A stretch of DNA of 64,000 nucleotides from Bryobacterales bacterium (GTDB lineage: Bacteria; Acidobacteriota; Terriglobia; Bryobacterales; UBA6623), in NCBI GenBank assembly GCA_963422375.2, contig CAXXKD010000001.1, positions 1-64,000 on the forward strand, read 5' to 3'. The notes beneath the pieces are model-generated. The model worked only from the letters and a program-made list of their open reading frames with translations. It had not been told where the DNA came from and made no database searches. The position numbers and the translations under genes were made by a program. Position 1 is the first letter of the stretch. Each line of letters starts with the position of its first letter. Below, one piece after another: positions 2,690 through 33,005 of this stretch.

Positions 2690-3279
2690 CGGCTGAAGCC
2701 CCCTGGGTGCAGAACCTCGTCGAGCTGGCCTACCCCGGGGGCGCGACGCGGCTGTGGACGGGCCGCGGCGAGCTGAGCTTCGCCCCGGACGACGGCGACG
2801 CCGGCGGCGACGCCCGCAAGGTAGCCTGGACCGGCGGGGCGGCCCTCGGCATCGGCGAGCACGAGCGCGTGTCGGGCCGCCCCGAGCGCCGCATGAGCCT
2901 CGCGCTCTCGGGCGTGCCGCGCGAGCGGCGGGCCCGGTTCATGCAGGATCCCGGCCCGATCGAGGTGACCGTGCGCTGGGTGTACAGCCCCGACCTCGGC
3001 GAGAGCTGGCACGAGGTGCCCGGGGCGCGGTACCGGGGCCGCCTGTCGGGCGGGTCGCTGCAGGACGGGACGCTCGCGGTCGAGCTGGAGACCCTGCTCG
3101 GCGACGTGGAGCGGGGCCGGCCGCGGCGCTGGTCGCACGAGGACCAGCAGCGGCGCTCCCCGGCCCGCGAGGTCGCGGCCGGGGACGGGGGCGCGAAGCG
3201 GACCGTGCCGGCCGACCTGGGCCTCGAGCACATGCGGGCGCTGGCCCGCCAGGGAGTGGAGACGGCGTGGCCGCCCTAG
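2686..3279 (+). CDS. Putative tail hub / minor tail protein
   Basis: GTG at 2686 with a GGAGGAG RBS (3' part of ORF 1588..3279). Contains RLWTGRGEL and RRWSHEDQQRR...DLGLE...WP motifs. Confidence 0.6.
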   Translation: MTAEAPWVQNLVELAYPGGATRLWTGRGELSFAPDDGDAGGDARKVAWTGGAALGIGEHERVSGRPERRMSLALSGVPRERRARFMQDPGPIEVTVRWVYSPDLGESWHEVPGARYRGRLSGGSLQDGTLAVELETLLGDVERGRPRRWSHEDQQRRSPAREVAAGDGGAKRTVPADLGLEHMRALARQGVETAWPP

Positions 3280-3734
3280 CCGGCCCAGCCGGGCGCGAGC
3301 GGGCGCGGCGGGTCCGCGACGCCCTCGAGTCCGAGGGCCTCGGGCCGTCCGCCTGGCGCGAGCGCGACTGCGTGACGCTGCTGCGAGCGGTCGTGCGGGC
3401 CCTGTCGGGCCGCGAGCCCTCGCTGGCCCTGCCGGCCTGGACCGACGGCCTCGGCGAGCGCGAGGCGATCCTGCGAGCTCCCCGCGAGCACGGCTCGCTG
3501 CGGGACGGCTGGGCCGCGGTGCTGGACGCCGAGCCGCTGCTGCGGCGCGTCCCGCGGGGATGCCTGCCGCGGCCGGGCATGATCGCCCTGGCGGCGGTCG
3601 TCCTCGGCCCCGGGGGCGAGCGCCTGGCGGGCGCCTCGCCGGGCGTGATCGGCCCGGGCTGCGAGTGCTGGGTCCGGACGCCGCGGGGCATCGAGCGGGC
3701 GCACCCGGTCACGGACCTGTGGGAGGTCCGCTGA
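3267..3734 (+). CDS. Putative NlpC/P60-like tail assembly protein
   Basis: GTG at 3267 with GGAG upstream. W-x-x-x-DC motif (AWRERDC). Lies between the hub and the central fibre, like lambda gpK. Confidence 0.55.
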
Positions 3735-3735
3735 G

Positions 3736-8928
<5,193 letters not shown>

Positions 8929-8935
8929 GAGCGAC

Positions 8936-10864
8936 ATGGATCCCGCCTACGTCATCAACGCCTTTCCCGAGCGGCGCGAGGCCGTCGCGTTCGAGCTCGA
9001 GCGCCACGGCGGCGCGGACCCGGCCGCGATCCGCTGGATCGGCGCCCCGCGCGGCAGCGCGGCCCGCGGCGAGCCGCTGTTCGCCTGGCCCCGCTGGCGC
9101 GAGGAGCGGACCGGGGCCCTGCTGACGTGGGGCGAGCTGGCCTGCTTCGCGGGGCACCTCGAGGCCTGGCGGCGCATCGCCGCCGGCGACGCGGGCGGGG
9201 GCTTCGTCTTCGAGGACGACGCCGCGCTGACGGCCCGCCTGGACGGGCTGCCGGCGGAGGCCTTCGCCGGCGCCGGCCTGGTGTACCTGCACTCGCAGTG
9301 GCGCTGCGAGCCCGAGCCGGGCCCGGGCCCCTGGTGCGCGGCGCCGTACACGTGGACGCTGACGGCCTACTGGCTCTCGCGGGAGGCCGCGGCCGGGCTG
9401 GCCGCGGCGGTCGATCCGGACCGGATCGTGCCGGCGGACGAGTACGTGCCGTGGCACTGCGGGACGTGGGACCCGGCCTTCAACCCGCGCGTGCGCGGCG
9501 AGCTGGGGCAGCAGCCGCCGGCGGGGATCGCGGCCCGCTGCCTGCGGGAGCGGCCGGCCGGGCCGTCCGGGCGCTGGGAATCGTCCACCGCGGCCGGCCT
9601 CTCCCCGCCGGCCTTCGACTTCGAGACGGTCGTCTTCGCCACCGAGCCGGCCCGGGCCGGGGAGGCGCTGGGGGCCCTGCGCGACCTCGGCTACCGCCCG
9701 CGGGTCCTCGGCGCGGGCGAGCCGGGCTGGGACGCCTCGGCGGAGGGCGGCATGCCCAAGCTGCGCTGGCTGCGGGAGGACCTCGCGGGATCCGACCCGC
9801 GGCGGCGCGTCGTGCTGGCGCTGGACGGCTACGACACGCTGCCGCTGGTCCCGGCCGCGGAGTTCTGGGCGCGCTTCGCCGGCATGGACTGCCCGGCGGC
9901 GATCTCCGGGGAGCGCGGGCTGTGGCCCCCGCGCAACGAGTGGGTGCCCGACCCGGAGCGCGCCTGGCAGGCGTACTGGGAGGACTGGCCGTGGCGCCGC
10001 GAGGGCGTCGCCGAGCGCTACCGGCACGCGTGCAGCGGCGCCTTCGCCGGGCACGCCGAGACGCTGGACTGGGTGCTGCAGGGCCTGCCGCCCGACGGCG
10101 ACGACCAGGCCTGGATGCAGGCCGCCGTGCTGGCCAACCCGCGCGCCTGGCGGGTCGACTCGGAGGCCTGGCTGTTCCAGTCGCTGGGCGGCGAGGAGGG
10201 CGCCGTCGAGCGGCGCGACGGCGCGGCCTTCAACGCGGCCACCGGCTGCTACCCGGCGATCCTGCACGCCAACGGCCCGCAGGCCTCGCTGGACCCGTTC
10301 CTGCCGGGCCCGCCGCCGGCGGCGCTCGAGCTGGACCCGGACGCCGGGCGCTGGCTGGAGCTGGCGCCGGGCGTCCTGGGCATGCCGTTCCTGTCGCGCG
10401 CGGCCTGCGCCGGGCTGCTCGAGAGAGCGGAGGCCAGCGACGCCTGGCAGCCGCTGGAGGGGGACGCCGTGCCGGGCGACGAGCTGCGCCTGCGCGCGCT
10501 GGACCCGGCGCTGCGGGCGTGGCTGGACGAGACCCTGCGCGCGGTCGTCGGTCCGGCGGTCGCGGCGCGCTGGCATCCCGCCGCCTGGAAGGACCCCTGC
10601 GACGCCTTCCTGATCCGCTACCGCCCGGACCGCCAGCCGTCGCTGCGGCTGCACGAGGACATCAGCTACCTGTCCTGCTCGATCCGCCTGCGGCGGGCCT
10701 GCGCGGGCGGGCAGCTGCGCTTCCCGCGCCAGAATTTCGACGACGGCGCGGCGGACGACGGCTGGCTGCTGCTGTGGCCGTCGCGGATCACGCACCCGCA
10801 CCGCGTGCTGCCGGTGCGGCGGGGGACGCGCGCCAGCCTGGTGGTGTGGACCCCGGAGAGCTGA
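8936..10864 (+). CDS. Three-domain collagen-modifying enzyme candidate: GT25 (COLGALT-like) + PLOD-type glycosyltransferase + PLOD-type lysyl hydroxylase (2OG-Fe(II))
   Basis: GT25 motifs: [44 protein letters not shown] motifs: [43 protein letters not shown]. Hydroxylase motifs: [48 protein letters not shown]. Confidence 0.88.
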
Positions 10865-10879: not shown

Positions 10880-11722
10880 GTGCCCGCGTTTATCCGCTGG
10901 CGCGTCGAGGCCGCCGGGGGGACCGACTTCGGCGCGCCCCAGCCCGTGCTGGCGGGCCTGCCGGGCGGCCCCGGACAGCCCGGGCCCAAGGGCCTGCCCG
11001 GCCGGGCCGGACCGCCCGGAGCCCCCGGGCCGACCGGAGTCCCCGGGCGGGCGGGGCCGGCCGGGCTCCCCGGCCTCGAGGGGTTCCCGGGGCTGCCCGG
11101 CGCCGAGGGCGCCGGGGGCTCCCGGGGGGCCCGGGGGCTCCGGGGCCTGGACGGCGCGCCGGGCGCGAAGGGGGTTCCCGGCCGCCGGGGGGCGCCCGGA
11201 GCGCAGGGCGCGCGGGGGGATCCGGGGGGCCCGGGGGCGCAGGGGCGGCAGGGCTCTCCCGGCGCCCGGGGCCCGGCCGGCGCGCGCGCCGCGCGAGGCG
11301 AGGCCGGCAGGGGCGGCGCGGGCGGAGACCCCGGCGCGGGCGGAGACCCCGGCGCCCGGGGCGCCGGCGGCACCCCCGGAGACCGCGGCAGTCCCGGCTC
11401 CCGGGGAGACAGGGGCTCCCTGGGCGACAGGGGCCCCCCGGGCGCCGGAGGAGACGCCGGCGCCCCCGGAGACCGCGGCAGTCCCGGCTCCGGGGGAGAC
11501 GCCGGCGCCGCCGGAGGCATCGGTATCACCGGCTCGGACGGGGCCGGCGGGGCCGGCGGCGAGCCCGGGGGCGCCGGAGACCAGCCCAGCGGGCCGGACG
11601 GATGGTCCGGGCCGGCCGGACCGCCGGGAGACCCGGGCGGGAACGTCTACCTGCAGGCTTACGACGACGGGTACGGCGAGGGCTACTTCGACGGCGAGGA
11701 CGACTGCTACTCCGAGCAGTGA
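10880..11722 (+). CDS. Collagen-like protein A (280 aa; Arg/Asp-rich helix, acidic C-terminal tail)
   Basis: Long Gly-X-Y run; GGGGAG RBS; ends [24 protein letters not shown]. Confidence 0.9.
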
Positions 11723-11730
11723 CGCGAGCG

Positions 11731-12597
11731 ATGCCGACGACGACGTGGACGACGGAGGCCGCCGCCGTCGAGCGGGACGACCTGCGCGCGCGGGACTTCG
11801 GCCCGGCGCGAGCGGACTCCGCGCTGCACCCGCCCGGGCCGCCCGGGCCGCGCGGGGAGACGGGCCCGCCGGGGCCCCGGGGCCCGGACGGGCCTGCCGG
11901 GCGCCCGGGGCCGCCCGGGCCGCGCGGGGAGACGGGCCCGCCCGGCGCGTTCGCCCGCGCCGGCGCCCCGGGCGCTCCGGGCCCGGCCGGCCCCAAGGGC
12001 TCCGCGGGCCTGCCCGGACAGCCCGGAACCCCCGGCGCTCCGGGCGCCAAGGGCTGGCCCGGACGGCAGGGCCTGCCGGGAGCCGAGGGAGCCGGGGGCG
12101 CCAAGGGCCGCAAGGGCTACAGGGGCCCCGGGGGCCCCGGGGGCTCCAAGGGCTCCAGGGGCGCCAAGGGCGCCAAGGGCTACAGGGGCCCCGGGGGCCC
12201 CAAGGGCGTCGAGGGCCGGAAGGGCTCCGACGGCGCGCGGGGCGCCAAGGGATACAGGGGCGCCAAGGGGACCAAGGGGACCAAGGGCTCCAAGGGGACC
12301 AAGGGCCTCAGGTCCTTCCCCTTCCGCGGGCCCCGGGGCCCCAAGGGCTACAGGGGCAGCCCCGGCCCGGCCGGCGGGACCGGCCGCGGGGGCTACGCGG
12401 GCGCGCGGGGCCCGCGCGGGGCCCGCGGGCCGGCCGGCGAGCCGGGCCCGATCGGCCAGGTCTACCAGGAGCCGCTGCGCGGCGACCCCGGGCCGAAGGG
12501 GCGCAAGGGCGCCAAGGGCAGGCGCGGCCGGACGCTGGGCTACTCCTCCGGGTACGCGGCCGGGCATGCTGACGGATACGCGGATGCCGGCTGCTAG
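11731..12597 (+). CDS. Collagen-like protein B (288 aa; X-Lys-Gly rich)
   Basis: ATG at 11731 (3' part of ORF 9127..12597). GPP/GPR triplets then [15 protein letters not shown]; ends [19 protein letters not shown]. Confidence 0.9.
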
Positions 12598-13435
12598 CGG
12601 GGCGCTGTGGACGATCGTCGCGCGCGCCCCGGACGCCCGCTCCGTGCGGGCCGGGGGCTTCGGCGCGCCGCGGCTGTACGCCGGCCCCGTCGGCCCCGTC
12701 GGCGAGCGCGGACGCCCGGGACCGCCCGGCGGCGAGGGGCACCCCGGACCGCCCGGACCGCCCGGACCGCGGGGCCCGCGCGGGCCCCGCGGCCGGCAGC
12801 GGCGCGGCGAGCGCGGACGCCCCGGGGCCGTCGGCCAGCGGGGCGCGCCGGGCGACCCGGGACCGGCGGGCCGGGGCGGCGACCCCGCCCCCGACGGCGC
12901 GCAGGGCGACAGGGGCGCCCGGGGCCTGCCCGGGAGGCAGGGCGACCCCGGCCCCGGCGGCGCGCAGGGCGACAGGGGCGCCCGGGGCCTGCCCGGGAGG
13001 CAGGGCGACCCCGGCCTCGGCGGCGCGCAGGGCGACAGGGGCGCCAAGGGCGTCAAGGGCTCCAAGGGGCGCAAGGGCTACAGGGGCGTCAAGGGCGCCA
13101 AGGGCGCCAAGGGCGCCAAGGGCGCCAAGGGCTCCGACGGCGCGCGGGGCGCCAAGGGCCCCAAGGGGTACAAGGGCGCCAAGGGGTACAAGGGCGCCAA
13201 GGGCGCCAAGGGCGCCAGGGGCCGGAAGGGCCCCAAGGGGTACAAGGGCGCCAAGGGGTACAAGGGGTATAAGGGATACAAGGGGAGCAAGGGCGAGGCC
13301 GGCTACTATTCCGGCAGCCCGTTCAACCCCGAGGACTACCGGGGGGCGCCCGGGCCGCCCGGCTCCAAGGGCGCCAAGGGCGCTTCCGGAGGAGGACGCA
13401 ACTATGGCCGGACGACGCTACCGCATGCTCGCTGA
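12584..13435 (+). CDS. Collagen-like protein C (about 283 aa; very X-Lys-Gly rich; start could be 12566)
   Basis: Gly-X-Y run ending in GAK/GYK/GPK arrays. The 12584 start gives an MP... N-terminus like proteins A and B. Confidence 0.88.
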
Positions 13436-13667
13436 CGGCGACCCGGACAAGCTCTCGGCGGAGAGCTTCCGCGCTTTCGGCGAGCTGGCCGCGCGGCGCG
13501 GGAGGGCCCCCGTCACCCTCTGGGTGCTCGAGTCCGACGAGGAGCTCTCCGCCGAGGGCGCCCGCCCGCTGCGCCCGCTGCCGGACGGCACCTGGGAGGC
13601 TCCCGGCGGCCGCCGCTGGCGCCGCTTGACCGGGACCCCCGGCGGCGCGGAGGGCCCCCGCGCGTGA
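13404..13667 (+). CDS. Small hypothetical protein sharing a motif with the tail-fibre inter-collagen domain
   Basis: Strong GGAGGAGG RBS and GTGA coupling to the next gene. RPLRPLPDGTWEAPGGRRW resembles the fibre segment [19 protein letters not shown]. Confidence 0.65.
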   Translation: MAGRRYRMLADGDPDKLSAESFRAFGELAARRGRAPVTLWVLESDEELSAEGARPLRPLPDGTWEAPGGRRWRRLTGTPGGAEGPRA

Positions 13668-14218
13668 ACGGCCCCTGGAGCCTGGTGCCCGGCGCCGTCG
13701 ACGACTGCGCGGGCCTGCTGCGCGCGCTGCTCGACAGCACGGAGCTGCGCCCCGGCACCGTCAACGGCGACGGCTCCGTGCGCCCCGACATCCGCCGCTC
13801 CGCCGTCGGCTGGCCCGACCCCGCCCGCCACGCCGCCGAGCTCGCCCGCGTGCGCCGGGCCGTTCTCGCGGCCAACCGCGAGCTGTGGGGCTTCGATCTC
13901 GACGGCGGCGAGGAGTGGCAGCTCACGCACTACACCCATCTCGACGCGGGCGTCTACGAGCGGCACATGGACTGCTCGCTGGAGGGCGGGCGGCCGCGCT
14001 GCCGCAAGGTCTCCGTCTGCGTCAACCTGTCCGACCCGCGCGACTACGAGGGCGGCTCGCTGCGGCTGGGGGCCGTGGGCCAGCCCGACCGCGCGGCGCT
14101 GCGCCAGCGCGGCGCCGCGCTGGTCTTCCCCAGCTTCGTCGAGCATCGCGTCACGCCCTTGCTGGCCGGGGAGCGCTACTCCCTCGTCGCCTGGTTCTCC
14201 GGGCCGGCCTGGCGCTAG
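13664..14218 (+). CDS. 2OG-Fe(II) oxygenase (PKHD / prolyl-hydroxylase-like)
   Basis: HMD (HxD), RKVSVCVNLSDPRDYEGGSL, VFPSFVEHRVTP and GERYSLVAW motifs. Confidence 0.9.
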   Translation: MNGPWSLVPGAVDDCAGLLRALLDSTELRPGTVNGDGSVRPDIRRSAVGWPDPARHAAELARVRRAVLAANRELWGFDLDGGEEWQLTHYTHLDAGVYERHMDCSLEGGRPRCRKVSVCVNLSDPRDYEGGSLRLGAVGQPDRAALRQRGAALVFPSFVEHRVTPLLAGERYSLVAWFSGPAWR

Positions 14219-14532: not shown

Positions 14533-14765
14533 TGGGAACGCGGACGCTGCACTTCCTGGCAGCCTTCGATCAGGTCTGCGACAGGGAGCTGCTTCCCATG
14601 AGGCAGGCCGAGGAATGTGGCGCCCGGAGAACAATCGACGAGGCGGCGGCAGTGGCGCTCGGTATCGCTCCCGATGCAATCGCGGACTGGAGAAGGCGTT
14701 TGGCGTTGGAGCCGACGATCACCAATGTGCGCGTCAGGGAACCCGGGAGCGAAGAGGCATCCTGA
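14533..14765 (+). pseudogene. Possible C-terminal remnant of a large DNA methyltransferase / type IIG R-M gene
   Basis: LAAFDQVCDRELLPM...RRTIDEAAAVALG...WRRRLALEPTI resembles such C-termini from memory. Sits at the edge of the R-M island. Confidence 0.35.
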
Positions 14766-14811
14766 GCATGGCCCTGAACGCGAAGCACACGGATTTCCAA
14801 GGGGCTTGAGC

Positions 14812-16908
14812 ATGTCTGTCGAATACTCGATGAGAATTTCCCGGCTTACCGTCGACAAGTTGGGGGTCAAGCTCTACGACAAGGTGTCCGCCGTCATCGC
14901 CGAACTCATCGCGAACGCCTACGATGCCGATGCCACACATGTGACGGTTCGAGCGCCGATGGGGCAGTTTCTGGCGACTCGAGCCGGAGGCACCGTGGCG
15001 GACAAGGGCTTCAGCATCGAAGTCGACGACGACGGCATCGGCATGACGCCTCAGCAGGTACAGGACTTCTTTCTCGTCGTCGGTTCCGAGCGGCGGAACG
15101 ACACCAGCCGAGGCGACCGTTCGCCCCGCTACAGACGTAAGGTCATGGGCCGCAAGGGCGTCGGAAAGCTGGCACCCTTCGGTATCTGCAAGACCATCGA
15201 GGTGATCAGTGCCGGCGGAGATTTCATCGACGGCGGGGGTGCGACCCCGGGCGCCACGGGCTACCTCACGTCCCACATCGTCCTCTACTACGATGGCATC
15301 ACGGCGCTCGATGATGAGCCCGACGAACGCTACAAGCCGGTCGTGGGCGACCGCGATGAGTCTTACTCCCCGAAGTCGGGGACTCGAATCATCCTGAAGG
15401 ACTTCAGCCACCGGAGGGTCCCCGAGCTCAATGTCCTCGGCCGCCAGCTCGCCCAACGCTTTGGTATCCCGTCGACGGACTGGAATGTCCAGCTTCTGGA
15501 CAACACGGAATCCACTCCGTCACCGGTGACGGTCGGCACCTTCGACATTCAGACGATGCCGAACACGAAGCTCACGTTTGGGCAGAATGGAACTGTACTC
15601 AACCCCGACGGTGCTCCTGCGATGGACCAGTCGGCCGGATTCGAACATGAGGGCATATTTCGCCCCATCACAGGCTGGATGGCGTACTCGAAGGCTCCCT
15701 ACAAGGACGAGCTCATGGCTGGGGTGAGAATCTACTGCCGCGGCAAGATCGCCGCCCAGACATCCATCTTCAACCAGCGGGCCGGCTTTACCGGCGAGCA
15801 CAACATCCGCTCCTATCTCGTCGGCGAGCTCCACGCCGACTGGCTCGACGAAGAAGAAGACCTCATCCAAACCGATCGACGGGACATCCTCTGGTCGGAC
15901 GAACTCGCTGCCGCCTTCCAAGCTTGGGGCCAGAGAATCGTCAAGAAGATCGGCACCCTGTCGCGGGAGCCCATGCGGAGAGCGACTTTGGATCTGTTCC
16001 TCGAGACGGGCGATGTCGACGCTCGCATCCAGAACGCCTATCCGACCGAAGAGCAACAAGACATTCGCAAAAGCGCGAAAGAGGTCGCCGAATCCTTCGG
16101 TCGCACGATCAGCCGAGGGGATGTCGAAGATGCCAGCGTCGTGAACGAACTGGTCGATCTGAGCATCACCCTCGCGCCCCACATCACGCTCAACGCCAAG
16201 ATGAAGGAAGCGGTCGCCAGCGCCGACACGCCGCTCTCTGTCCTAGCTTCGTTCCTGCGTACGGCGCGATTGGCCGAACTGTCCTCGTTCGGCAGAATCG
16301 CGGAAGACCGCCTCAAGGTCATCGACCGCCTCGAAATTCTGAAGGACGCCGACGACACCGACGAGAACGATCTTCAGCGGCTGATCACTGACGCTCCCTG
16401 GTTGATCAACCCTGAATGGGCGCCGGTGACCGAAAACCAAACCTTCGCGAGTTTGCGCCGGGAGTTCGAGAAGTACTACAACGACAAGACCGGCCAGTCC
16501 ATTTCGTTGTCCGATTTCCAGAAGACGGGCAAACGGCCGGACTTCGTCTTGTCCAATCAGGAAGGCACGGTGCAGATCATCGAGATCAAGAAGCCGGGCC
16601 ATAGACTGTCGAACCCGGAAATGGACAGGATCGTCACCTACTACGAGAACATGGAGGCGTTCCTTGACGACCCTGGGCATACCGCGTTTCGCATGCACTT
16701 GGCCGACTTCCATGTCACCGTGGTCTGCGACAGGCTCGGTTTGAGCGGTTCTCCGCGCGCCGCCTTTGATGGTTATCGTGACAAAGGCAGACTGACGCGC
16801 ATGGACTGGACGGCGTTTCTCCTGAAATCGGAACAAGTGCACCAGGATTTTCTCAGCGAGGCCCAGCGTCAGCGTGCCGCCGGACCAGCGGTTCCCGACG
16901 GCCATTGA
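14812..16908 (+). CDS. GHKL (MORC / HATPase_c_3-like) ATPase with C-terminal PD-(D/E)xK nuclease
   Basis: ELIANAYDADA, DDGIGM, GRKGVGKLA and SGT GHKL motifs; C-terminal RPDFVL...IIEIKK. Confidence 0.88.
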   Translation: MSVEYSMRISRLTVDKLGVKLYDKVSAVIAELIANAYDADATHVTVRAPMGQFLATRAGGTVADKGFSIEVDDDGIGMTPQQVQDFFLVVGSERRNDTSRGDRSPRYRRKVMGRKGVGKLAPFGICKTIEVISAGGDFIDGGGATPGATGYLTSHIVLYYDGITALDDEPDERYKPVVGDRDESYSPKSGTRIILKDFSHRRVPELNVLGRQLAQRFGIPSTDWNVQLLDNTESTPSPVTVGTFDIQTMPNTKLTFGQNGTVLNPDGAPAMDQSAGFEHEGIFRPITGWMAYSKAPYKDELMAGVRIYCRGKIAAQTSIFNQRAGFTGEHNIRSYLVGELHADWLDEEEDLIQTDRRDILWSDELAAAFQAWGQRIVKKIGTLSREPMRRATLDLFLETGDVDARIQNAYPTEEQQDIRKSAKEVAESFGRTISRGDVEDASVVNELVDLSITLAPHITLNAKMKEAVASADTPLSVLASFLRTARLAELSSFGRIAEDRLKVIDRLEILKDADDTDENDLQRLITDAPWLINPEWAPVTENQTFASLRREFEKYYNDKTGQSISLSDFQKTGKRPDFVLSNQEGTVQIIEIKKPGHRLSNPEMDRIVTYYENMEAFLDDPGHTAFRMHLADFHVTVVCDRLGLSGSPRAAFDGYRDKGRLTRMDWTAFLLKSEQVHQDFLSEAQRQRAAGPAVPDGH

Positions 16909-16913
16909 CGAAC

Positions 16914-18008
16914 ATGACTCCGACGGCGATCGACATCTTTGCCGGCGCTGGGGGCCTGACGGTTGGCCTCAAACGCGCGGGCTTCCGCGTTGTCGCTGCG
17001 GTGGAGATCGAGGCCCATTCATTCGCTACCTACAAGGCGAACCATCCTGAGGTGCGGTGCCTGAAGCAGGACATCGCCACGGTCTCCGGCGACGCTCTTT
17101 TCGAGCTCGCGGGAACAGACCGAATTGATCTACTGGCAGGTTGCCCGCCGTGCCAAGGCTTCACCAGCCTGACTGCAAAGTACAAGGGTAGGGAAGATCC
17201 TCGTAACGCACTCGTTCTCGAGATGGCCCGCCTCGCCGAGGAAATGCGGCCGCGGGCGATCATGATGGAGAATGTCCCCGGATTGGCACGAAAGGGCGGA
17301 TCGCTATACGGTCGAATGCAAGCGCGACTCCAGGCGCTCGATTACCGACTGACAGATAGGATACTGCAAGTCGCTGATTACGGTGTCCCGCAGTTTCGGC
17401 GACGATTTGTCCTACTCGGTGGTCAAGGCTTCGAGATCGCCCTCCCGGACGCGACTCATTCCGGTACGCCGACTGGTAACCTTACGCGTTGGCGCACGGT
17501 AGGTGACACGATCAAGAACATGCCTGAACCCCTCACCTTGGCGGAGGCCAAGGCAAGGGGAGAGGTCGAGCGGTCCGACTGGCATGTCGTTCGAAAACTG
17601 TCGCGCGAGAACATCGAACGCATTAAGGCGGCGAAGCCAGGTGAGACATGGGCGCACATTCCCGAGCATCTCCGGCCGGCCTGTCACCGTGACGGCTATG
17701 TCGGATTCACCAATGTATACGGGAGGATGGTTTGGGACCGACCGTCACCTACGATTACCGGCGGCTGCACCACTCTAAGCAAGGGCCGCTTTGGTCATCC
17801 GAATGCCGACCGGACGATCTCCGTACGGGAGGCCGCACTTCTCCAGACCTTTCCCCGAGACTACCGCCTTGACACACCGTTCATGGATTATGTGTGTAAC
17901 ATGATAGGCAACGCATTGCCGTGCGACTTTGCGGAAGCCCTCTCGCGGCGATGTCTAGACGAGCTTGGCAAACAGGCGAAAAGCATGTCCCCGACATTCT
18001 CCAGCTAG
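16914..18008 (+). CDS. C5-cytosine DNA methyltransferase
   Basis: IDIFAGAGG, GCPPCQGF, MENVPG, YGVPQFRRR, SVREAALLQTFP and IGNALP motifs. Confidence 0.95.
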   Translation: MTPTAIDIFAGAGGLTVGLKRAGFRVVAAVEIEAHSFATYKANHPEVRCLKQDIATVSGDALFELAGTDRIDLLAGCPPCQGFTSLTAKYKGREDPRNALVLEMARLAEEMRPRAIMMENVPGLARKGGSLYGRMQARLQALDYRLTDRILQVADYGVPQFRRRFVLLGGQGFEIALPDATHSGTPTGNLTRWRTVGDTIKNMPEPLTLAEAKARGEVERSDWHVVRKLSRENIERIKAAKPGETWAHIPEHLRPACHRDGYVGFTNVYGRMVWDRPSPTITGGCTTLSKGRFGHPNADRTISVREAALLQTFPRDYRLDTPFMDYVCNMIGNALPCDFAEALSRRCLDELGKQAKSMSPTFSS

Positions 18009-30163: not shown

Positions 30164-31678
30164 GGGAATTATATATCTGAGTGCCGAGGCAACCGATTTT
30201 GCAAATTATCAGTCCATAAATTAATTTCATACTTCTTCCGGAGATCTGTTGACAATCGGTGGATTATTTTGATAGAATAGTTCCAATATATGAGGTCGTA
30301 TATGAAGCAGAAAGGTCCCGGGAAGTGGTTTCGTAAAGGCATCACTCTGATTGAAGTGATCGCCATGTTCCGCGATGACGAATCCGCGGAAAAGTGGTTC
30401 GCCTCCATGCGCTGGACCGACGGTCCGGTATGCCCCTTCTGCCGCGGCTCCAGCGTGCAGTCCGGCACGGCCCACCCTTCGATGCCGTACCGTTGCCGCG
30501 GCTGCGGCAGGCGCTTTTCCGTGCGCACCGGCAGCGTGATGGCCGACACCAAGCTCGGCTACCGCACCCGGGCCGTCGCCCTGTTCCTGCTGACCACCGG
30601 CATCAAGGGCGTCTCAAGTATGAAGCTGCACCGCGACCTGGGCATCAGCCAGAAGTCGGCCTGGCACCTGGCGCACCGCATCCGCGCGTGCCGGGAGCGG
30701 CATCAGGGCCTGTTCGCCGGCCCGGTGGAGGTGGACGAGACCTGCGTCGGCGGCAAGGAGCGCAACAAGCACGAGAGCAAGAAGGCCCGCGCCGGGCGCG
30801 GGCCCGTCGGCAAGACGCCCGTGGCGGGGGCGCGGGACCGCGCCACGAACGCAGTGGCCGCGCGGCCACTGCCGGGCACCGCCAAGGGCGACCTGCAGGG
30901 CTTCGTGCGCGGCCGGGTCGCGCCGGGCGCGCAGCTCCGCTCCGACGAGGCGGCGGCCTGCGCCGGCATGGCGGAGTTCCCGCACGAAGCCGTCAAGCAC
31001 TCCGGCGGCGAGTACGTGCGCGGGGCGGCGCATACGAACGGCATCGAGTCGTTTTGGTCCCTGTTCAAGCGCGGCCTGTACGGAACCTATCACCGGATGA
31101 GCGTCCGTCATCTCGGCCGCTACCTCACGGAGTTCGCGGGACGGTGCAACGACCGCGACTGCGACACGGCGGAACGGATGCGGCGCATGGCGCGGGGCCT
31201 GGTCGGCCGGACGCTGACCTACCGGCAGCTGACCGGCAAGGCCGCGGTCGCGGCCCGAGCGGCGCCCTCCGAGCCGAGCGCCGCAGCCCGCTGCCGACGC
31301 ACTCTTCACGCTCGGTGCGCTTCACGCTCGGTGCGAGGGGCGCGCCGGATCTGGAATCCCCCGGCGCGACCCGCGTCCGGCCCGGACCGTTCATGCAGGC
31401 CGTCGAGCGCCGGGGATCCGCTGTCTTCGGCCCTCGCAGGGCACGCAATCGGCTTGCAAAGGGTGCCCTCCACCGCCAACCGGATTCCACCGGGCATGCG
31501 AGGGCGCCTCTCTTATCCGTGCCTCGTCCATTCCGCTGGCAGGCTCGATTCAGATACGATCCCACCTTGCCGTGCCTACCGCGGCCGCATTCGAATGACC
31601 CGAGCCAGACGCCGACCTCCCTGCTCACAGCAGTTCTCGTCGGACATGGCGTTGTCGGCACTCAGATATATAATTCCC
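30164..31678 (+). mobile_element. IS1595-family insertion sequence
   Basis: 24-bp TIR GGGAATTATATATCTGAGTGCCGA at both ends; 8-bp TSD TTTGAATG at 30156-30163 and 31679-31686. Confidence 0.95.
30302..31258 (+). CDS. IS1595 transposase (stop codon apparently lost; ORF runs on to 31741)
   Basis: CPFC..CRGC zinc ribbon, VEVDET and HTNGIESFWSLFKRG. CGA at 31256 where the second copy has TGA. Confidence 0.85.
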
Positions 31679-33005
31679 TTTGAATGCGCTGCCTCATGCC
31701 GGAGGACCACACGTCCCCCGACAGCGGCGTCAGCCGGTTGAAGCGGTAACCCTCGAACACGCCGAAGAAGAAGGTCCTGTTCTGGGAGATTGGCCCGCCC
31801 AGCGAGGCGCCGTAGTGGTGGTACACCAGCGGCGACTTCTGCGCCACGATGTGGTTGCGGGCATGCAGGCCGCCCGACTGGTACATCTCGAACAGGCTGC
31901 CGTGGAAGTCGTTCGTGCCGCTCTTGCTGATGAGGTTGATGTTGCCGGCGATCGTGTTGCCGGTTTCCGCCGAGAAGATGTTCTTCGACGTCTCGACCTC
32001 GCGCACCGCCTCGATGCTGATGCCCTTGATGAAGTTGAAGTTCTGGTACAGGGCCAGTCCGGCGAACTCGGCGTCCGGCACGGAATCCACGGCGTCCACG
32101 GTCATCGTGAAGCCGCGCGGGGCCAGGCCGTTGATCGACATCTTCCAGCCGCCGTCCGTTATGGCCGCGCCGGTGCCCAGAGAAGAGGATGCCGGTGATG
32201 TCACGGTTGATCATCGGCAGTTCGTCCACCTGCGTCTCGTTCAGCGAGATGTCCTGTTCGGCGTTGACGGTGTTCATCAGCGGCGCCGCCCCGGTGACGG
32301 TAACCGTCTCCGTGGTTGCACCGATCTCCAAGGTGTAGTTCAGGTTGGCTCGCTGGCCGGTCGCAAGCTGCAACCCCTCGACCGTGGTGGCCTTGAATCC
32401 GTCGGCCGTGAGGACGACGGTGTAACTGCCCGGCGGAATGAAGGTGATCGCGAACTGGCCGTCCTCGCCGGAGGTCTTCGACATCTCCTGACCGGTGGAC
32501 TCGTTCGCAATGTTGACTTCAGTTCCGGGAATGACGGAGCCGCTCGGGTCGAGCACGAGGCCTTGGAGGGTGGCCGTCGTGACCTGCGCCTCCAAGCCCA
32601 CGTGCAAGCCCAGAGCCAGCAGGCAGAGCGCGCCTGCCCGGAGCAGGCGTGAGCCGGGTCGATGCATGCACATGGCGTTCTAACTCCTTTCTCTCGAGTT
32701 CGCCGCCGAAGGCGTCCCCGCGCTGACCGCGCCGCGCGGTCCCCAACGGCACCGCCTGTCGAATCACTCGTGCCTACGCAGAACCGGCGATTCGAGGTGC
32801 AGCTGTCGACTCGAGACGCCCTACAATCCGTCGAGCGAGCTGTCCTGCGAGTCTGGGCGCCGCTGCGCCCCCGCGGGAGCCGGCACGGCTTGACAGGCGG
32901 ACCGAGGTGTAGTCGAATTGTGGCGCCCTTCAGGGGCTTCGAGTGCCGCTTGCGACAGACGAATCCCTTCGGCGGGGCCGTCGAGAAAGGAAAACTGTGC
33001 AACGA

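Follow-up and report, generated by a model that had tools for sequence, protein, structure and literature searches.

The question raised by a 64,000-nt stretch of a Bryobacterales genome (GenBank assembly GCA_963422375.2, contig CAXXKD010000001.1, positions 1–64,000; hereafter the window) is whether three adjacent collagen-like genes encode the chains of one heterotrimeric triple helix or of three separate fibres. The genes, for chains A, B and C, sit in the tail module of a roughly 43-kb siphovirus-type prophage and follow a gene for an enzyme that resembles animal collagen-modifying enzymes (Table 1). An initial annotation had noted three adjacent chains of equal size and proposed an ABC heterotrimer directed by Lys–Asp charge pairs, or three fibres docking through a shared N-terminal motif. 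Comparison with related loci revealed that the three chains co-vary in length and keep their types. Assembly of A, B and C in a 1:1:1 ratio into a single heterotrimeric triple helix, serving as a glycosylated tail fibre, stands at about an even chance on this comparative evidence.

Table 1 Genes of the collagen module and its immediate neighbours in the window
Feature	Position	Strand	Description
J-like central tail fibre / host-specificity protein	3736..8928	+	1730 aa; own collagen-like segments
Three-domain enzyme	8936..10864	+	642 aa; GT25 (COLGALT-like), PLOD-type (LH3-type) glycosyltransferase (GT) and 2-oxoglutarate (2OG)/Fe(II) lysyl-hydroxylase (LH) domains
Chain A	10880..11722	+	Collagen-like; GTG start, 280 aa; N-terminal module (N-module) 1-25, helix 26-255, Tyr/Gly-rich tail 256-280 with single Cys
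Chain B	11731..12597	+	Collagen-like; ATG start, 288 aa; N-module 1-35, helix 36-268, tail 269-288 with Cys at end
Chain C	12584..13435	+	Collagen-like; ATG start, 283 aa; N-module 1-33, helix 34-271, short tail 272-283 without Cys
Small open reading frame (ORF)	13404..13667	+	87 aa; overlaps end of chain C, abuts oxygenase
PKHD/PiuC-type 2OG-Fe(II) oxygenase	13664..14218	+	184 aa; Pfam 2OG-FeII_Oxy_3 4e-12, phrog_61

The ORF listing and the Pfam matches bore out the description of three adjacent collagen chains of equal size. All belong to the collagen triple-helix repeat proteins (Collagen, PF01391; cut-off 27.2 bits), with E-values of 4e-23 (81.3 bits) for A, 3e-29 (100.9 bits) for B and 1e-30 (105.7 bits) for C. 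The genes are tightly packed, with a gap of 8 nt between A and B and an overlap of 14 nt between the end of B and the start of C; if C began instead at an ATG further upstream, at 12566, it would be 289 aa long. With the chosen starts, the translations also show what had been said of the N-termini: all three begin with M-P, contain one Trp (W7 in A, W6 in B, W9 in C) and carry an F-G-(A/P) motif just before the helix (TDFGAPQ, RDFGPAR and GGFGAPR, respectively). The helices span 230, 233 and 238 residues and hold 76, 74 and 75 triplet positions, in Gly-X-Y runs of 37 + 32 + 6 triplets in A, 13 + 39 + 15 + 6 in B and 13 + 9 + 46 + 6 in C; each chain is interrupted by one Gly-to-Ala substitution and one to two short breaks (one of 2 residues in A, two in B). 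Pro occupies the Y position 26, 16 and 15 times in A, B and C, and Lys 2, 19 and 26 times. The G+C content of the first ~14.3 kb of the window is 74–82%, and that of most of the remainder about 65%; in DNA of roughly 80% G+C all six frames are open, and open frames alone are uninformative for gene calling. The collagen reading frame is supported because the non-collagen N- and C-terminal segments are conserved in relatives.

Relatives were collected by a search with an enzyme alignment and by a genome search, and 13 genomes or contigs were counted, including this one (G000). Of 76 other genomes of the same family, 9 contained an enzyme homolog (36–55% identical), and further homologs came from two acidobacterial metagenome-assembled genomes (MAGs) and one viral contig; the hosts of the related loci are assigned to Bryobacterales, Acidobacteriota. 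No homolog was found in 324 genomes of two sister families, a phylum-wide sample of 400 genomes yielded no new locus except the already-seen L090, and a locus search with a single enzyme sequence returned none in genome contigs or viral contigs.

Eight of the 13 carry one chain each of types A, B and C with matched helices. Counted in triplets (A/B/C), these are 76/74/75 in G000, 57/58/57 in G116, 88/90/83 in G096, 70/69/66 in G071, 42/41/41 in both G132 (four copies) and G145 (two copies), 50/47/45 in the viral contig L076 and 86/85/85 in L077. Helix length thus co-varies over 41 to 90 triplets, and the chains of one locus differ by no more than 7. The combination of distinct chains, separate genes and matching helix lengths is that of heterotrimeric collagens such as types I, IV and IX and C1q. 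The helix spans correlated with r = 0.99 in seven of the eight matched loci. When B and C lengths were shuffled among loci, a match as good as the real one did not arise in any of 200,000 permutations (p ≤ 5e-6, a value that overstates independence, the phages being related, with at least six distinct length classes), and the result also held with three discordant loci added. In five of the eight, the C-proximal break lies at a corresponding place in the three chains, after triplets 70/68/69, 51/50/50, 82/84/78, 63/62/61 and 45/42/41.

Recent gene conversion was rejected as the cause of the equal lengths for G000, G096, G071 and the viral contig, since the paralogs are mostly 66–70% identical: helix nucleotide identity between paralogs is only 66–70% in G000, G096 and L076, the best A–B stretch in G071 reaches 73%, and chain B of G096 was enlarged by its own tandem repeat. 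Patches of 86–91% paralog identity were seen in G132 and G145. The four prophage copies in G132 (L028, L029, L030 and L086) exhibit the same chain lengths, save for one triplet in one C chain, and the positions of the basic GRKG/GKKG blocks in B and C are shuffled between the copies.

The chain types themselves are conserved. Each chain has an N-module of 25–35 residues with one Trp and the F-G-(A/P) motif, in which the W and the F are invariant across sets, and the N-modules cluster by type (support 96/94 for the A clade; 3 label changes on the tree versus 11.2 with shuffled labels). The C-terminal tails are also type-specific, those of A and B being homologous and C having no such tail; taken alone, N-modules and tails matched no Pfam family. 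Even between loci with enzymes of only 36–55% identity, these non-collagen segments stay conserved and true to type. From the grouping of the N-modules by type and the type-specific tails, it follows that the triplication is older than the divergence of these phages. In 10 sets, every A and B chain contains exactly one Cys, near the C-terminus, and no C chain contains any.

Two loci carry fusions that touch on the assembly. A homologous repeat domain of ~300 aa (E 5e-28) is N-terminal to the A-type chain in G071 (L031:11464-13143) and to the B-type chain in the viral contig (L076:4079-5629); no internal start codon separates head and chain, and these two chains are the only ones with heads. 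The domain, built of LYELDPDG...LRALPSGL...RLLVVD units and beta-propeller-like by eye, had no Pfam match. In complete trios, the first helix Gly follows the invariant Phe at +8 in all eight C-type and at +9 in all eight A-type chains, a conserved offset of one residue between A and C; in B-type chains it lies at +9 in four of seven sets and at +10, +13 and +16 in the others. A stagger of 0, 1 and 2 residues set by linker length was rejected, the variable B leaving no clean series.

A single ABC helix is the simplest reading of these data, because three ancient paralogs co-vary tightly and repeatedly. It is further supported by the aligned terminal break, by Cys in A and B only, by the swap of the head domain between carriers and by the tight gene packing. 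In such an assembly, the ~30-residue W...F..P N-modules, one per type, would gather A, B and C and set the register. Before folding, the three-domain enzyme would hydroxylate the Y-position Lys residues of the chains and then add galactose and glucose in turn, and the PKHD-type oxygenase may hydroxylate Pro at that position. The helix would then zip over 74–76 triplets with a common hinge six triplets from the end, a single A–B disulfide, with no partner from C, would lock the Tyr/Gly-rich tails of A and B, and the fibre would be attached near the tail tip. With a rise of about 0.29 nm per residue over 230 residues, the helix would be about 65 nm long. The fuller version of this proposal, in which a phage ABC heterotrimer combines chain selection by N-modules, glucosyl-galactosyl-hydroxylysine made by one enzyme and an A–B disulfide, is given slightly less than an even chance.

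The heterotrimer idea of the initial annotation thus gained from type conservation in relatives, from co-varying lengths and breaks and from the Cys pattern, but its charge rationale did not extend beyond this genome. The compositions reported for the C-terminal halves were correct: that of A is Asp-rich and Lys-free (17 Asp, 0 Lys; isoelectric point of the whole chain 4.9), and those of B (14 Lys, 17 Arg; 11.2) and C (26 Lys, 10 Arg; 11.3) are Lys-rich. However, the A helix is not acidic overall (net charge +3) because its N-terminal half carries 14 Arg, and B and C bear +35 each, which would leave an ABC helix strongly basic. Charge pairing was scored in seven loci by a crude measure of axial and lateral pairs. 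In G000 the score was 19.5 for ABC, compared with 9.5 for AAA, −8.5 for BBB and −11 for CCC, and ABC exceeded all homotrimers in G000, G132 and G096. G000 alone had an in-register score above those of the shifted and the rotated controls (p about 0.01–0.02); G132 passed the shift control only.

A number of results weigh against a single ABC helix, and the first of them concern charge. Lys or Arg at Y and Asp or Glu at X is the ordinary collagen pattern and was seen in every chain of every locus; the net helix charge is roughly balanced in the six other loci scored; homotrimer scores equal or exceed that of the best ABC register in four of the seven loci (G116, G145, G071 and L076); and the register test was not significant in six of the seven. 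Across the loci, the charges do not form the register-specific Lys/Asp pairs of electrostatically directed ABC heterotrimers. Lys–Asp complementarity therefore holds in this genome only, and as a general chain selector it was rejected, since it is not conserved in relatives; at most, charge pairing would be a local contributor in this genome.

A second group of adverse observations comes from the loci themselves. Conservation of the triplet in related phages, which the initial annotation had proposed to check, was found in the eight matched cases, but in the other five of 13 chains are missing, broken or mismatched; these five show the varying copy number and unequal lengths that the annotation had named as refuting its proposal. 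Two of them hold just two chains: in G034 a 52-triplet A chain is accompanied by a 17-triplet B/C hybrid, and in L090, where B is absent, A and a frameshifted C both run to 42 triplets. The other three, G065, G036 and G119, show a nonsense mutation, a stop-interrupted enzyme, a deletion or frameshifts. G036 has 38/50/42 and 45/43/13 triplets, with B frameshifted in both copies and a stop codon in the enzyme of one; G119 has 42/5/41, with A frameshifted; and G065 has lost the chains and carries an in-frame TAG stop in the enzyme. The deviating genomes are MAG assemblies in which some frameshifts may be assembly errors, and the Gly-X-Y runs of the frameshifted genes were counted frame by frame. 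Internal breaks are also chain-specific: chain B of G096 has six 1-residue insertions to a single one in each of its A and C chains, and chain B of G000 has a break after triplet 53 without a counterpart in the other chains. Natural heterotrimers, too, can differ in interruptions between chains (PMC11923368).

A third group concerns fibre length and more distant enzymes. The length of the collagen part of J, which we presume to be homotrimeric as in phage lambda, correlated with chain length at r = 0.76 without L076 and 0.16 with it, and given this tracking there may be some general selection on fibre length. As the explanation of the equal chains, fibre-length selection shared with J was rejected, the correlation being only loose. 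Distant enzyme homologs usually lie beside one long collagen-like gene. Among 41 metagenome loci, 10 contained a collagen-like ORF in the fetched DNA, nine of them one large ORF and one three small ones, and in Roseobacter phage CRP-6 (L096, MK613348.1) gp60, with 99 uninterrupted Gly-X-Y triplets, adjoins a 25%-identical enzyme homolog.

Much of this would fit three homotrimers, A3, B3 and C3, forming separate fibres or a lateral bundle, docked via the shared N-module and kept equal in length through side-by-side action. We regard this as a serious rival, with the chances somewhat against it. Prokaryotic collagen-like proteins were described as homotrimers in a 2022 review (PMC8968730), and every chain has a complete N-module and helix, so each could fold alone; chain-specific breaks and Gly substitutions, the homotrimer scores in four loci, the two-chain loci, the loose tracking by J, which hints at general selection on fibre length, and the single long gene beside distant homologs point the same way. 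Homotrimers would nevertheless call for some unexplained constraint keeping three separate fibres to within 7 triplets of one another over lengths of 41 to 90, and the match among A, B and C is far tighter than that with J. In this genome each chain of B3 or C3 would bear a charge of about +35, and the pair scores of both trimers are unfavourable on balance; the odd single Cys per chain in A3 and B3 could not all pair within one trimer, and the same head domain moves between A and B types.

Mixed stoichiometry, either A2B or AB2 together with a C homotrimer or a flexible arrangement such as A/C trimers without B, appears improbable. The homology of the A and B tails, with one Cys each and no such tail in C, would suit it, as would L090 with its equal A and C chains and the finding that some AAB-type combinations score as high as ABC; against it, C tracks A and B in length and in break position no less closely than A and B track each other, and one chain per type is kept in eight of the 13 genomes. 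That the ORFs are not all real or functional, being chance open frames in G+C-rich repetitive DNA or remnants of a decaying prophage, is very improbable: all six frames are open in such DNA and related prophages do have frameshifts and deletions in these genes, but the type-specific terminal segments are conserved across divergent loci, the genes are intact in all three prophage copies of this genome, and A, B and C all exceed the Pfam Collagen threshold.

The ABC reading assigns the modification of its Lys residues to the enzyme encoded immediately upstream. Pfam matches comprised GT_PLOD (PF25342; 6e-12, 45.6 bits versus a 27-bit cut-off), Glyco_transf_25 (PF01755; 9e-7, 29.4 bits versus a 24-bit cut-off, residues 52–101 only) and 2OG-FeII_Oxy_3 (4.5e-5, 24.8 bits, below the 27-bit cut-off). 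Comparison with PDB sequences by phmmer revealed human LH3 (E 1e-21) over the GT domain (query 250–450) and the LH domain (478–637), COLGALT1 (about 6e-5 to 1e-4) over residues 50–172, and mimivirus R699 (1.8e-4) and L230 (3e-3). In an alignment of 14 enzyme homologs, H573-x-D575, H620/H622, R632 and D297/D300 are invariant. The enzyme thus has an LH domain with the H-x-D...H motif and a 2OG-binding Arg, presumably with the roles of the matched LH3 residues, a PLOD GT with the D-x-x-D metal motif and a GT25 catalytic domain, and it is predicted from these motifs to perform all three steps leading to glucosyl-galactosyl-hydroxylysine. The Y position, at which the Lys residues were counted, is the substrate position of lysyl hydroxylase.

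The family is small, with 65 cluster representatives at E ≤ 1e-30 among 1.84 billion. A distant marine contig, L055 (phage-like, 37% G+C), encodes at 3161–3901 three tandem paralogous mini-collagens of 73, 78 and 79 aa with 15–17 triplets, which follow a gene for a 1056-aa fibre and precede a P4H-like gene and a PLOD-like enzyme homolog (24–28% identical); it is an independent case of three equal-sized chains by the same enzyme type and speaks for the ABC reading. The cultured marine phages CRP-6 and Synechococcus phage S-CAM9 (L097) have homologs of the three-domain enzyme at about 25% identity, which are annotated as 'hypothetical protein' or '2OG-Fe(II) oxygenase' and directly follow tail-fibre genes.

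Two further genes adjoin the trio downstream. The oxygenase matched PKHD-type hydroxylases in PDB at about 2e-5 and was present in 10 of 14 loci compared (a fragment in one), with none in L009, L010, L011 and L034; it is a candidate collagen prolyl hydroxylase. The small ORF had no Pfam or PHROG match, and tblastn matches to it were found in seven of the 14 loci (L009, L011, L025, L026 in part, L032, L077 and L090); its product could be a fibre-assembly helper.

The setting is a phage tail module. Besides the end of the tape-measure gene and the J-like fibre, the part of the prophage inside the window has genes for an S24/HTH repressor and an integrase and a ParB-like gene; across the ends of the same contig, upstream, lie genes for the terminase large subunit, portal, major head, neck and tape-measure proteins. 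The gene order, tape measure ... J-like – enzyme – A – B – C, forms a module that is conserved in relatives, with J homologs preceding it in 13 of the 14 loci. The J-like protein matched phrog_31 (central tail fibre J), phrog_5616 and phrog_6320, and Pfam Collagen at E 7e-38. As expected of side tail fibres, the trio is encoded behind the central fibre gene within the tail module; the chains showed no distal globular receptor-binding domain, their tails being only 12–25 aa long and having no Pfam match. The collagen part of J (window about 7279–7731) and chain B share corresponding segments of 19 residues, and chain A shares 10 residues, which suggests past exchange of collagen cassettes among these fibre genes.

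The element is present three times in the genome, once per contig, at 96–100% identity (window 1–28679; G000:C3:479729–494719; C2:~1307800–1350163; on C1 across the contig ends). Chains A and B have the same length in all copies, with one mismatch in A on C1, and chain C on C2 carries an 18-nt insertion. The ends of C1 and C3 fall inside the prophage, in the J collagen repeat and the tape-measure gene, respectively, and because they lie inside a repeated prophage these contig breaks may be assembly effects of the repeat. A low-G+C insert (59–65%) in the prophage at window 14617–18008 encodes a 763-aa HATPase_c_3 protein and, after it, a C-5 cytosine DNA methylase, and may be a moron or defence-type cargo. 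An IS1595-family transposase (DDE_Tnp_IS1595 with zinc ribbon) lies at window 30290–31741 in an element of about 1.5 kb, of which dozens of copies with 87–98% identity are spread over all three contigs.

In how the trio would work, its closest analogue is C1q, in which three collagen-like paralogs of near-equal size, encoded side by side, form an ABC heterotrimeric stalk with an A–B disulfide and with hydroxylated and glycosylated Lys at Y. The phage trio likewise consists of clustered paralogs with matched helices and Cys in A and B only, next to a Lys hydroxylase/glycosyltransferase. C1q owes its chain selection to large gC1q heads at the C-terminus, whereas the phage chains have just a tail of 12–25 aa and an N-module of ~30 aa; their source is a prophage of Acidobacteriota and not a vertebrate, and the heterotrimer here is a putative one.

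Mimivirus (L230 lysyl hydroxylase/glucosyltransferase, R699) is a comparable case of a virus with collagen-like proteins and PLOD-type enzymes. It is a giant virus of amoebae, whereas here a bacteriophage fuses GT25, PLOD-GT and LH domains in one 642-aa protein, with three short chains of matched length from a tail module as its candidate substrates. The GT, LH and GT25 domains align with those of human LH3/PLOD3 and COLGALT1, with invariant H-x-D...H, Arg and D-x-x-D motifs; these are two animal enzymes, found together in a solved complex (8zgc), as opposed to one polypeptide here, and overall similarity is low and the phage activity a prediction. Scl1/Scl2, BclA, PRD1 P5 and collagen-like minor tail proteins resemble the chains in joining Gly-X-Y rods to a small non-collagen module for trimerisation or anchoring, and PHROG collagen-like tail-fibre matches were obtained; those bacterial and phage collagens are single-gene homotrimers (PMC8968730), in contrast to the three co-varying paralogs and the Lys-modification enzyme of this locus.

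Electrostatic ABC collagen peptides have reportedly been designed by Gauba and Hartgerink in 2007 and by Fallas et al. in 2009. The phage chains resemble them in placing Asp at X of one chain and Lys at Y of its partners, which is the geometry of axial Lys–Asp pairs, but the Asp of A offsets only a small part of the +35 on B and C; charge pairing is unlikely to be the main chain selector because the pattern is not conserved in relatives.

Iyer et al. 2010 (PMC2938197) predicted that bacterial dioxygenases modify collagen-like proteins encoded with them, and this is the nearest published work. Full-text searches, with subscription journals outside their scope, turned up no report of heterotrimeric collagens in phages or bacteria, nor of PLOD-type enzymes that act on phage tail fibres. 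Three fibre lengths that vary strictly together and a fused COLGALT/LH3-like enzyme in Acidobacteriota phages both appear to be undescribed, even if the fibres are homotrimers. If A, B and C do form one helix, the trio would be the first heterotrimeric collagen to occur naturally outside animals. Register-defined heterotrimeric collagen is, according to a review, still difficult to make recombinantly, and the locus would offer a ready chassis for producing such collagens in bacteria. A phage system of three short chains, with a tiny candidate selection module and a Lys hydroxylase/glycosyltransferase of its own, would also provide a directly testable model of chain selection, and animal-type machinery for galactosyl- and glucosyl-hydroxylysine would be shown to operate on phage tail fibres.

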